Positions 12,535-15,200 of a stretch of 64,000 bases of DNA are shown piece by piece. The stretch is from an uncultured Gammaproteobacteria bacterium (GTDB lineage: Bacteria > Pseudomonadota > Gammaproteobacteria > JBGSLN01): positions 1,126,238 through 1,190,237 of the forward strand of contig OY968770.1 in assembly GCA_963695245.1 (NCBI GenBank). Direction: 5' to 3'. Numbering within the stretch: position 1 is the first letter of the stretch; each line of letters opens with the position of its first letter. Position numbers and translations under genes: made by a program. The notes under the pieces are model-generated. The model worked only from the letters and a program-made list of their open reading frames with translations, did not search any database and was not told the origin of the DNA.

Positions 12535-13860
12535 CTAAAGTGACCTTAACTTTAGCAAAACCCCATTTTTAGGCTTCAAAGTAACAATATGTTCCACACC
12601 CACATGATGCTCAGGGTGAATCGTTAATTCGAACCGCTGTAATACCATAGCAATAATGATGATGGATTCCACAGGCGCAAAATGGCCGGCAACACAGACT
12701 CTGGGGCCAGCACCGAAAGGTAGGAAGGCAAAGGGTGGAGGTTTGGCGTAAGTGTCGCAAAAATGTCTTTCGGGAATAAAATCTAATGGTTGTTCCCAAT
12801 AGCATTGACGTCGATGCAGTGTGTAGGGAGAAATTAAAATCGTCGAGTTTTTTGGAATAAAATATTCACCTAAGTAATCATCCACTTGATTGACTCTGGG
12901 TGTCAGCCAGATGGGTGGATAGAGTCGAATGGCTTCTTCGAAGATGCCGCGGGTGTAAGGCAGATTTTTAAGGTCTTCAAACTCGGGTGGTTTAGATCCA
13001 ATAACTCTTTTAATTTCACAACGGGCTTTATCTTGTATATCAGGATTTTCTGACAAAAGTTTAAAGGCAAAACCCAAAGTAGAGCCGGTGGTTTCGTGTC
13101 CTGTCATCAAAAAAGTTTTTGCTTCATCATATATTTCTACCTCAGAGAGTTTTGAACCATCTTCATTTTCTAAAGTGAGAATTTTATTAATTAAACTGTC
13201 AGTGTGAGGATTTTCACGGGCATTTTGCAAAATGTCTTCAATGTGCTGTTTTAAAATGCTTCGAGCTTTTCGATAGCGCATACCGCTTAAAGTCGGGATA
13301 TTTGGCCACAGCCCTGGGAATGAAGCAGAATAACGATTGTCTAAATAAATCGCCTGCAAGGCATTTTCAATCTCTGTCTCTGACAGGTTTTGTTTAAAAA
13401 AAGCCTCAACAGCAATTTCATAAGTGACTTTCATAATTTCATGACTGAAATCAATATAATCGCCGGTATTTTGTGGCTTATCAGCCAGCATCGCCAATCT
13501 TTTTTCAGTGACTTGTTGGATAGTATTTACATAATTTAAAATACGGGTAGGGGTAAAAAAAGGTGCCATGGCAAGTCGGCGAGTGCGCCATTGACTGCCA
13601 TTTAACATTAAAATTCCTTTACCCAAAAAGCGAGCCATGGGTTTTGTTCTGGCACCGGTTCTCAAATAGATATCAGGTTTTTGTTTTAAAACCTGTTTTA
13701 TCATTTCGGCATCGTTGATAAGGTATCCGCGATCATAGCAAGGCACTTTAACGATACCGCCAAAATCTTCCATCAACTCACAGTAATACTGTAATCTGTC
13801 CGGCGCAGCTTCCAGCATAAAAGAAAAGTAAGAAGGGCCTTTAGGTAATTTTTTTTTCAT
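12535..13860 (-). CDS. Cytochrome P450 (eukaryotic CYP4/CYP102-like class)
   Basis: Heme loop FGAGPRVCVAGHFA, ExxR EAIRLYPP, MTGHETTG I-helix. Confidence 0.85.
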   Translation of the reverse strand: MKKKLPKGPSYFSFMLEAAPDRLQYYCELMEDFGGIVKVPCYDRGYLINDAEMIKQVLKQKPDIYLRTGARTKPMARFLGKGILMLNGSQWRTRRLAMAPFFTPTRILNYVNTIQQVTEKRLAMLADKPQNTGDYIDFSHEIMKVTYEIAVEAFFKQNLSETEIENALQAIYLDNRYSASFPGLWPNIPTLSGMRYRKARSILKQHIEDILQNARENPHTDSLINKILTLENEDGSKLSEVEIYDEAKTFLMTGHETTGSTLGFAFKLLSENPDIQDKARCEIKRVIGSKPPEFEDLKNLPYTRGIFEEAIRLYPPIWLTPRVNQVDDYLGEYFIPKNSTILISPYTLHRRQCYWEQPLDFIPERHFCDTYAKPPPFAFLPFGAGPRVCVAGHFAPVESIIIIAMVLQRFELTIHPEHHVGVEHIVTLKPKNGVLLKLRSL

Positions 13861-15200
13861 AAAAAAACCTTAATACCATATTTGGGTTTTAAAGAAATAA
13901 TATGCTCGAAATCCAAAGGGTGATCCTCATCCAGCTTTAAAGTTAAATTTTGCATTAAAACTGCCAAAATTAAAACGGCTTCTTTCATGGCAAAAGCGCC
14001 AGCGATACAACCTCTTGGGCCTTTTAAAAAAGGGATAAAAGCAAATTCAGGGGGTTGCTTTTCATAATCAGGTAAATGTCGTTCTGGTTTGAACTTAAGC
14101 GCATCCTCCCAATATAAAGATCGACGATGCAAAGTGTAGGGAGAAATGAATAGGTTGGTGTTTTTTTTGATAAAGTAATCACCCAAATAATCATCTTGCT
14201 GGCAGACTCTTAAAGTGATCCAGATGGGCGGATACAATCTTAAACTTTCCAAAAAAACCGCCTGGGTATATTTTAGCTGCTCTAACTGGCTGATACTGAT
14301 GGCGCCATCCCCACAAACCGCTTTCAATTCCTGCTTAATCTGGTTTTGTATTTCAGGATATTGCGCAATCAATTTTAAAGTCCAGCCTAAGGCGGTGCCG
14401 GTGGTTTCGTGTCCTGTCATAAGGAAAGTCACCACTTCATCAAAGATAACAGATGCTTCTAAAGGATCGCCCTGAAGATTCTTAGCATTGAGAATTTTGT
14501 CTACTAAAAAATGATCATTGGGCTTTTTTTTTGCATTTGAAATAATATTTTCAATGAAGCTATCTAAAAATTTTGCAACTTTTCGGTAACGAAAATAGCT
14601 GATAGAAGGAAACCAGGGTAACATATTGGGAAGAGACGTAGCGTAAGCATGTTTATAGTAGATAGCTGTTAAAACTTTATCTAAAGTAGATGCTGAAATA
14701 TTCTGATTATAAAAAATTTTTAGCGTCACTTCAAAAACTAAAGCCATAATGGCCTGATAGATATCAAAACTTTGATGAGTACCAGAAAATTGACTTTGCC
14801 AGTTTTGCAGATGCCTGTGTGTGAGTGAGCAGATAGGTTCTATATAGTCTGAAAAGTGCTTTGGTTGAAAAAAAGGGGCGAATTGTCGACGACGGTTGCG
14901 CCAATTTGCACCTTCAGTCATTAAAAGCCCATTCCCCAGGCACATTCGAATCGGTTTAAAGCCAAGACCGCCTTTGAGATAATTATCTGGGTTTTCCTTT
15001 AAAATATATTTTAAAAAATCCGCGCTGTTTACCAGATAACTGCGAGTAAACGCCGGCACTTTAACTATGTCACCGTAATCTTCCATGAGCTCATAACAGT
15101 ACTGTAGACGGTCAGAAACCATTTCTCCCATGTAAGAAAAATAAGAAGGACCTGGCGGTGGACATTTATGCTTCATGATTTTTGCGCAATATATATGCAA
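13857..15200 (-). CDS. Cytochrome P450, tandem paralog
   Basis: FLKGPRGCIAGAFA, ESLRLYPP, MTGHETTG; 4-nt overlap with the downstream P450. Confidence 0.85.
   Translation of the reverse strand: MHIYCAKIMKHKCPPPGPSYFSYMGEMVSDRLQYCYELMEDYGDIVKVPAFTRSYLVNSADFLKYILKENPDNYLKGGLGFKPIRMCLGNGLLMTEGANWRNRRRQFAPFFQPKHFSDYIEPICSLTHRHLQNWQSQFSGTHQSFDIYQAIMALVFEVTLKIFYNQNISASTLDKVLTAIYYKHAYATSLPNMLPWFPSISYFRYRKVAKFLDSFIENIISNAKKKPNDHFLVDKILNAKNLQGDPLEASVIFDEVVTFLMTGHETTGTALGWTLKLIAQYPEIQNQIKQELKAVCGDGAISISQLEQLKYTQAVFLESLRLYPPIWITLRVCQQDDYLGDYFIKKNTNLFISPYTLHRRSLYWEDALKFKPERHLPDYEKQPPEFAFIPFLKGPRGCIAGAFAMKEAVLILAVLMQNLTLKLDEDHPLDFEHIISLKPKYGIKVFL

Follow-up and report, generated by a model that had tools for sequence, protein, structure and literature searches.

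Several characterised cytochrome P450s (CYPs) share a long, E-class fold. Among them are CYP97A3 (LUT5) and CYP97C1, the plant chloroplast enzymes that hydroxylate the beta- and epsilon-rings of carotenes; CYP184A1, a stand-alone soluble enzyme from the actinomycete Streptomyces avermitilis; CYP170A1 (albaflavenone monooxygenase) and pentalenene oxygenase, which are soluble bacterial terpenoid oxidases; and CYP102A1 (P450 BM3), whose heme domain is fused to a diflavin reductase. CYP102 and CYP3A enzymes take their electrons from a diflavin (CPR-type) reductase. As for secretion loci, a gene without a known role in secretion can be carried stably inside an icm cluster: in region II of Legionella pneumophila, tphA lies between icmB and icmF, and it has been suggested to be a passenger that is unrelated to secretion. 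Here, we describe two tandem P450 genes, P450-A and P450-B, that adjoin region II of the Dot/Icm type IV secretion system in a 64-kb stretch of DNA from an uncultured gammaproteobacterium (contig OY968770.1, positions 1,126,238 to 1,190,237; we will term the whole stretch the window and number it from its first nucleotide). In enzymatic terms, both P450s look unremarkable. The novelty, as far as our searches show, lies in their conserved residence inside the Dot/Icm virulence-secretion locus of an uncultured Legionella-like branch. The literature that we searched does not mention a P450 in the locus of a Dot/Icm system or of another type IVB secretion system.

Both genes are on the minus strand. 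P450-A (13857..15176) is the upstream, icmN-proximal paralogue, and P450-B (12535..13860) is the downstream paralogue, with an ATG start and 441 amino acids (aa). By direct reading of the sequence, the stop of P450-A and the start of P450-B overlap by 4 nt (ATGA, 13857-13860). This arrangement is typical of translational coupling, and the two genes are probably coupled. The two proteins are 46% identical over 435 aa, and both match almost the full PF00067 profile (for P450-B and P450-A respectively, E = 5e-74 and 4e-67, scores of 250.2 and 227.5 bits, both over the curated threshold of 22.8, and profile positions 23-442 and 1-455 of 462). A preliminary description of this DNA had reported a tandem P450 duplication at this place, with a 4-nt overlap, and the open reading frames (ORFs), the profile matches, and the identity between the copies confirm it. 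However, it gave the upstream protein 447 aa, from a mechanically chosen TTG start at 15200. The start is almost certainly the ATG at 15176, because MKHKCPPPGPSYF aligns with the MKKKLPKGPSYF of the paralogue and because this start gives the 439 aa of P0009, which is the database entry of P450-A.

The catalytic motifs are largely as expected. The ExxR motifs (EAIRLYPP and ESLRLYPP) agree with the RLYPP/ExxR of the preliminary description, the PERF-type motif reads PERH in both copies, and the acid-alcohol pair of the I-helix lies in TGHETT in both copies. The heme loops are FGAGPRVCVAG in P450-B, which contains the predicted heme ligand Cys389, and FLKGPRGCIAG in P450-A. They follow the pattern F-x-x-G-x-R-x-C-x-A-G, so the strict FxxGxRxCxG that had also been claimed is absent: Ala-Gly replaces the textbook final Gly in both copies and throughout the whole clade. 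The N-termini are hydrophilic (mean Kyte-Doolittle hydropathy of −0.6 and −0.8), and the proteins therefore lack an anchor in the membrane, as well as a signal or transit peptide. An AlphaFold2 model of P450-B has high confidence scores (pLDDT of 92.5 and pTM of 0.92). By profile match, catalytic motifs, and fold, both copies belong to the PF00067 superfamily, and sequence and model together effectively establish that both are intact, that they are soluble heme-thiolate monooxygenases, and that their architecture resembles that of CYP97, CYP102, and CYP184.

The translations of all window ORFs of at least 100 aa were compared with the DNA around 87 related P450 genes, and the key queries (the Icm, crt, and mvk proteins) were repeated against 173 related P450 loci. 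In all 16 related loci with readable context (L001, L002, L003, L005-L008, L013, L017, L019, L088-L092, and L095), the P450 is head-to-head with the gene at the icmN position, which is followed by icmM, icmL, icmK, and icmE, even though the identity of these P450s to those of the window falls to about 29-33%. In six of the 16 (L007, L013, L017, L019, L088, and L089), the P450 is nested antisense between icmO/dotL (then icmP and icmQ) and icmN. Because this nesting is found on several deep branches of the P450 family, it is most parsimoniously the ancestral layout. By its conserved position in region II, the P450 is a resident gene of the Dot/Icm locus, and icmN is its conserved partner rather than a mere boundary.

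In contrast to the icmN side, the far side of the P450 has been rearranged in at least six ways. The neighbours there are carotenoid (crt) and mevalonate kinase (mvk) genes in the window, DOT1-glnA in L001, miaA-mutL in L002 and L005, small ORFs in L003, adenosine deaminase in L090 and L091, and a helix-turn-helix gene with small ORFs in L092. (At L090 7001-9399 and L091 6001-8454, an adenosine deaminase gene comes after the icmN-linked P450 in the same direction; it is 62% identical between the two loci and may form an operon with the P450.) A basal relative, P0133, lies in an unrelated FemAB-like/short-chain dehydrogenase operon without icm genes, and the Icm-protein queries found no icm genes near about 155 more distant P450 loci. 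These loci set the limit of the Dot/Icm-linked P450 family.

Within that limit, the P450 has diverged together with the secretion system. Across 14 loci, P450 identity and IcmL identity (both to the window) have a Spearman correlation of 0.95, for points that are not phylogenetically independent. This is as expected for vertical co-inheritance. The identities themselves are 30-55% for the P450 and 57-87% for IcmL. As the window's IcmB is just 68-69% identical to those of its nearest named relatives, Rickettsiella and a "Legionellaceae bacterium", which is too low to assign a genus (identity to other contigs is 75-87%), the host is a member of a deep, essentially undescribed lineage of Legionellales. 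In the genome collection, the carriers of the P450 family are metagenome-assembled genomes that are labelled as Gammaproteobacteria or as Coxiellaceae bacterium. The family is carried by GCA_050249855.1, by GCA_054681755.1, and by the assemblies that contain JBGSLN01, JBGSSQ01, JAGVJZ01, and DJAM01. The P450-Dot/Icm locus could serve as a simple marker for this lineage.

The region II operon of the window (15292..27017, plus strand) was delimited with Pfam, NCBIfam, tblastn synteny, and an IcmB search. Its first gene encodes an OmpA-family lipoprotein at the icmN/dotK position (15292-15963). It is followed, all on the plus strand, by an icmM-like gene (15920-16195), icmL (16207-16851), icmK (16859-18016), icmE/dotG (18020-21198), homologues of icmG, icmC, icmD, and icmJ, and finally icmB (23994-27017). 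icmE/dotG is split over three frames (18020-19129, 19110-19850, and 19789-21198) within a region of Ala/Gly/Phe-rich decapeptide repeats. It is a single gene of about 800-960 aa in L001 (1302-4028), L002 (4633-7158), and L090 (1167-4061), so the split reflects either misassembly of the repeats or two real frameshifts in a gene for a core part of the secretion system.

P450-A and the icmN-position gene are separated by a divergent spacer of 115 bp (15177..15291). We aligned this spacer to those of five relatives (L001 6749-6866, L002 9895-10000, L005 1783-1888, L006 6901-7008, and L008 2228-2330). One block, AAATTGTAAC (minus strand, 15244-15256; TACAAT when read towards icmN), occurs only once in the window. 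A second invariant block consists of AAATCGAT followed by a T-run. The spacer of the window is 61-78% identical to those of the five relatives, whereas in the nearby icmL the 4-fold degenerate sites have reached saturation, with 26-38% identity. Because the spacer is far more conserved than these sites, it is under purifying selection, and it is a candidate shared control region for the P450 and the icmN operon. Inspection of the spacer by eye did not reveal an obvious PmrA-type tandem TTAATATT box. The spacers of more distant family members differ from that of the window's clade. For example, those of L017 (4899-5132) and L019 (1892-2082) are longer (190-235 bp) and have long inverted repeats in place of the conserved blocks.

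The duplication is older than the window genome. L001, the closest relative of the window (84% identity for GlnA, 87% for IcmL, and 71% for IcmN), also has a tandem P450 pair. P450-A is 55% identical to the upstream copy of L001 and 46% identical to the downstream copy, while P450-B is 53-55% identical to the downstream copy and to P0002 and 50% identical to the upstream copy. In a neighbour-joining tree with 200 bootstraps, P450-A pairs with the upstream copy (68.5%), P450-B groups with the downstream copy and P0002 (71.5%), and the duplication clade as a whole has 82.5% support. As A and B pair with the upstream and downstream copies of L001, the duplication predates the split between the two lineages. 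The copies have not evolved alike. Among 12 sites that are fixed differently between the two types, the state of the nearest single-copy relatives is kept at 8 of 12 in P450-A and at 1 of 12 in P450-B, which makes P450-A the conservative copy; judging from these sites, P450-B is the derived copy of the duplication. Five of the 12 type-specific sites are in substrate-recognition regions, which is not a significant enrichment (P = 0.16).

Although the fold is familiar, neither copy belongs to any of the CYP families that we compared. Foldseek searches with the model of P450-B put CYP184A1, CYP97C1/CYP97A3, BM3, and CYP3A4 in a practical tie (TM-scores of 0.82-0.87). Among solved structures, the closest sequence match for both copies is CYP97A3 (E = 1.7e-43 and 9e-49), with CYP97C1 in the top five, and then CYP170A1, CYP184A1, CYP46A1, CYP3A4, and CYP102. 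The identity to every reference CYP that we compared is 20-29%. CYP nomenclature requires at least 40% identity for membership in a family, so by that rule P450-A and P450-B would represent a new bacterial CYP family with two subfamilies. The preliminary description had called them "CYP4/CYP102-class" enzymes. This holds for the long E-class fold, which they share with CYP97, CYP102, CYP184, and CYP3A, but not for membership in those families, since identity does not exceed 29%.

Each of the characterised enzymes differs from the pair in its own way. CYP97A3 and CYP97C1 (PDB 6j94, 6l8i, and 6l8h) have the same long fold (TM-scores of 0.82-0.87), resemble the pair in the PERF-type and heme-loop motifs, and act on a lipophilic, isoprenoid class of substrate. 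However, they are only 26-29% identical to the pair, which is below 40% and outside the family, and they fall outside the prokaryotic clade in the tree; the pair lacks a transit peptide and conserved linkage to crt genes. CYP184A1 (PDB 7wzl and 7wzm, crystals with oleic acid) is the top structural match (E = 1.2e-27, TM-score of 0.86) and resembles the pair in length and in being a soluble, stand-alone enzyme of a bacterium, but it is 25-27% identical and comes from an actinomycete, without a secretion-system context. CYP170A1 (PDB 3dbg) and pentalenene oxygenase are the best NCBIfam models (192-195 bits) and have the fold class in common with the pair. These scores are well below the equivalog cut-offs of 700-800 bits, identity is 26-27%, and there is no terpene synthase gene adjacent to the pair. 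CYP102A1 is alike in fold class and motif spacing, and BM3 heme-domain structures dominate the list of structural matches. Nevertheless, CYP102A1 is just 22-24% identical (with a BM3 sequence that was entered by hand), the BM3 entries in PDB match at only 108-120 bits, and P450-A and P450-B consist of the heme domain alone, without a fused diflavin reductase, so they are not members of the CYP102 family.

The preliminary description also considered a eukaryotic origin by horizontal transfer to be plausible, and comparison with sequence databases does not support this idea. In a search of 5.8 billion proteins, the nearest relatives form a small clade at 38-55% identity, after which identity drops to about 30-34%, and the named proteins among the best 120 matches are all bacterial. 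In an exhaustive search of 1.84 billion representatives with a profile of the clade, single-domain prokaryotic or metagenomic proteins score 370-510 bits, while in the best eukaryotic proteins, CYPs from a beetle and a tick, each domain reaches about 200 bits. (The top of this ranking is occupied by two long arthropod gene models, P0121, XP_022918835.1 of Onthophagus taurus, and P0122, XP_064459127.1 of Ornithodoros turicata. Each fuses three to four tandem P450 domains into one predicted protein, and their summed scores may mimic a close eukaryotic relative. We ruled these models out as close relatives.) Placement against CYP families in the neighbour-joining tree, as the preliminary description had suggested, splits the outgroup references (CYP97, CYP102, CYP3A4, and arthropod CYPs) from all of the prokaryotic sequences in 83.5% of bootstraps. 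Also, the GC content of the pair is that of its surroundings. Without an N-terminal anchor, and with nearest relatives that are not eukaryotic, the pair does not belong with the eukaryotic microsomal-type (CYP4/CYP3) enzymes. Because the per-domain scores and the tree point to prokaryotic relatives and the GC content does not set the pair apart, a eukaryotic origin is unsupported; these comparisons demonstrate a prokaryotic affinity and identify the pair as bacterial rather than eukaryote-derived.

On the other side of the pair is a block of genes on the plus strand that converges on it. The preliminary description placed the pair between a carotenoid operon and icmN and converging on mvk, and this is correct: mvk ends at 12383 and the icmN-position gene starts at 15292. 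After glnA (3315-4724), which also points towards the pair, the block (4725..12383; assigned from Pfam, NCBIfam, and comparison with L001) contains an NAD-epimerase/3-beta-hydroxysteroid dehydrogenase-like gene (4725-5816), a crtE-like polyprenyl synthase gene (6361-7275), crtI (7283-8767), crtB (8764-9675), a lycopene cyclase gene (9668-10828), a CrtZ-like hydroxylase gene (10832-11335), and a mevalonate-kinase-like gene (mvk, 11337-12383). A 130-aa ORF without a Pfam match (5813-6205) lies opposite to the crt block, on the minus strand. The nearest relatives of the window's CrtI are 61-67% identical to it. A complete zeaxanthin-type pathway in a bacterium that bears Dot/Icm is unusual in itself.

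The linkage between the P450s and the crt genes is not conserved. No homologues of crtI, crtB, crtY, crtZ, or mvk were found near related P450s in any of the 173 loci, except for matches at 21-24% identity to CrtI-like FAD oxidoreductases in three distant loci. (In L045 2470-3900, L151 4170-5582, and L165 3690-5096, these CrtI-family oxidoreductases lie 2-4 kb upstream of P450 relatives of about 30% identity in other bacteria.) In L001, the order is icmK-L-M-N, then the two P450s, then DOT1 and glnA converging on the pair, so that the site of the window's crt-mvk block is occupied by a single DOT1-domain (histone-methyltransferase-like) gene (9575-10306). Because L001 has DOT1 there, the 7.7-kb epimerase-crt-mvk block at the tail-to-tail site between glnA and the P450s is particular to this genome, and by this comparison it is a lineage-specific insertion or replacement, with a hairpin at its junction. 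The hairpin (12416..12527, in the 151-bp gap between mvk and P450-B) has 50-nt arms and a 12-nt loop; the arms are 92% complementary, with the inner 34 nt perfect, and the predicted folding energy is −78.8 kcal/mol (z = −15.5). It is probably a bidirectional terminator or the insertion junction of crt-mvk, and it is absent from L001, where the gap between the P450 and DOT1 is 21 bp. We also considered that the hairpin might be a repeated mobile element, but the window holds just its two arms. As the P450s and crt-mvk are convergent and are parted by the hairpin (about −79 kcal/mol), they appear to be separate transcription units. Thus, the pair is not part of a crt gene cluster, and the functional tie to the crt-mvk operon that the preliminary description had favoured is not supported, as this adjacency is absent from L001 and all other related loci. 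The suggestive juxtaposition serves as a caution, as it seems to be a lineage-specific accident of insertion.

To explain these observations, we propose that P450-A and P450-B belong to a vertically inherited, Legionellales-specific P450 family that resides in Dot/Icm region II, was duplicated in one sub-lineage, and oxidises a lipophilic substrate inside the cell. We would give this explanation as a whole about an even chance. In this scenario, the P450 gene would have been nested antisense between icmO/dotL and icmN/dotK in the ancestor and passed on vertically with the secretion system. A tandem duplication in the sub-lineage of the window genome and L001 would then have given a conservative copy A and a diverged copy B. 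The pair would be transcribed away from icmN, from the short, constrained spacer that it shares with the icmN operon, and may be co-regulated with that operon. The soluble, anchorless proteins would act in the bacterial cytosol and, during host-associated life, hydroxylate a substrate that is long and lipophilic, namely a fatty-acyl, isoprenoid, or sterol-like compound, with electrons perhaps supplied by ferredoxin or flavodoxin systems that are encoded elsewhere. Finally, the crt-mvk operon would have joined later, on the tail-to-tail side of the P450, where rearrangement is tolerated. We suggest this class of substrate because the CYP97/CYP102/CYP184-like architecture accommodates such substrates in characterised enzymes; by this analogy, the substrate is most likely lipophilic and oxidised inside the bacterium.

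Several points weigh against this explanation. The substrate class is drawn entirely from fold neighbours, and these are all tied. Redox partner genes (ferredoxin, ferredoxin reductase, flavodoxin, or CPR-like) are absent from the 64-kb window, as judged by Pfam for all sizeable ORFs, and none lie beside any homologue. A head-to-head junction is by its nature less easily disrupted than a tail-to-tail one. The conservation of one side only could therefore be neutral for the most part, and the conserved spacer could serve the icmN promoter alone. The trees are neighbour-joining trees with moderate support at key nodes, and the outgroup sequences of CYP102A1 and CYP3A4 were entered by hand. Also, most of the locus contexts are short metagenomic contigs, and crt genes could be present elsewhere in those genomes.

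Of the other explanations, the two that take their cue from the first look at the sequence fare worst. The leading idea of the preliminary description was that the P450s act, by hydroxylation or another oxidation, on the zeaxanthin-type products of the crtE-I-B-Y-Z operon next to them. It has some appeal: the pair physically adjoins the operon, and two enzymes that hydroxylate carotene rings stand out among the matches. Of these, CYP97A3 is the best sequence match of known structure, CYP97C1 is in the top five, and both also rank high by structure. We nevertheless consider it quite improbable. Identity to CYP97 is low and CYP97 lies outside the clade; by structure, CYP97 is no better a match than BM3, CYP3A4, or CYP184A1, which binds fatty acids; and the operon already encodes a CrtZ-type hydroxylase. 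Moreover, only this genome has crt genes next to the P450s (there are none at about 170 related loci), and L001 carries the same P450 pair without them. Recent acquisition of CYP4/CYP102-class genes from a eukaryotic host, such as an amoeba or another protist, is very improbable and already largely refuted by the sequence comparisons. Legionellales are known to take up eukaryote-like genes, and the pair shows the long architecture of E-class P450s, with a PPGP-like motif near the N-terminus. (A single related case came up in the literature that we searched: L. hackeliae has a P450-domain protein that was listed among eukaryote-like genes; PMC4256840.) But in the profile search even the best eukaryotic domains fall far behind the prokaryotic and metagenomic proteins, the named matches and the GC content agree with a bacterial source, the tree excludes eukaryotic CYPs, and the co-divergence with IcmL indicates old vertical inheritance.

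The remaining explanations concern the secretion locus itself. The P450 could be a neutral passenger that was inserted once between icmO and icmN and kept by inheritance, with a function that is unrelated to secretion. Like tphA, it would then be a gene without a known secretion role that is stably carried inside an icm cluster. Breakpoint tolerance alone would predict that the tail-to-tail side is rearranged and the promoter side is not, simple vertical inheritance also predicts co-divergence, and no functional partner gene recurs. However, the P450 differs from tphA in its antisense position between icmO and icmN and in its conservation among lineages with just 57-87% identity in IcmL. The P450 is intact in 17 of 17 loci (the window and the 16 others), down to about 30% identity, and has been duplicated once, so it is kept by selection. 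It also stayed at its site when icmO moved away, and the spacer is under strong constraint. We therefore regard a neutral passenger as rather unlikely. Another possibility is that the P450s are translocated effectors, which would be exported by Dot/Icm and oxidise host sterols or lipids with the host's NADPH-P450 reductase or adrenodoxin. This would account for a gene that lies within the secretion-system locus in lineages that diverged deeply, for the lack of a bacterial redox partner nearby, and for a fold class that includes users of diflavin reductase (CYP102 and CYP3A). Also, the P450 evolves faster than core Icm proteins such as IcmL, as effectors often do, and eukaryote-like genes (DOT1 methyltransferase and adenosine deaminase) adjoin it in some relatives. 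But linkage to structural icm genes is in itself no proof that a protein is a substrate, export by a type IV system would demand both heme loading and unfolding, and no secreted P450 has been reported in the literature that we searched. Furthermore, the C-termini form the last beta-strand of the P450 fold and are basic, without an acidic, E-block-like tail, so that the sequence appears to lend this idea no support. We consider it unlikely. More broadly, the family might be a functional accessory of Dot/Icm, either as a translocated effector that acts on host lipids or as a co-regulated enzyme that remodels envelope lipids; this, too, we find doubtful. If it were true, a P450 would for the first time be linked to a secretion system of bacteria, and either host sterols and lipids would be oxidised via host reductases or a bacterial lipid would be remodelled for secretion or intracellular life. 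In general, if the linkage reflects function, it would point to an oxidation of lipids or sterols that has to do with type IV secretion or with an intracellular life in eukaryotes.

Elsewhere in the window, there are three paralogous LuxR/GerE-type regulators of 265-287 aa, at 27199-28062 (+), 28273-29100 (+), and 42738-43535 (−). The first two are in tandem, directly downstream of icmB. icmF and dotU/icmH are at 30730-34822 (−) and 39140-41457 (+), a few kb from region II, and an OmpR-type response regulator and a histidine kinase are paired near them, possibly as a PmrAB/CpxRA-like system. An Rfam scan of the window gave no matches and found no rRNA or tRNA. Finally, two large ORFs (622 and 870 aa) without a Pfam match lie at 47537-52081 (+), in the part of the window with the lowest GC content (22-32%) and with a strong GC skew. 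By their composition, they are candidates for horizontally acquired or effector-like genes.

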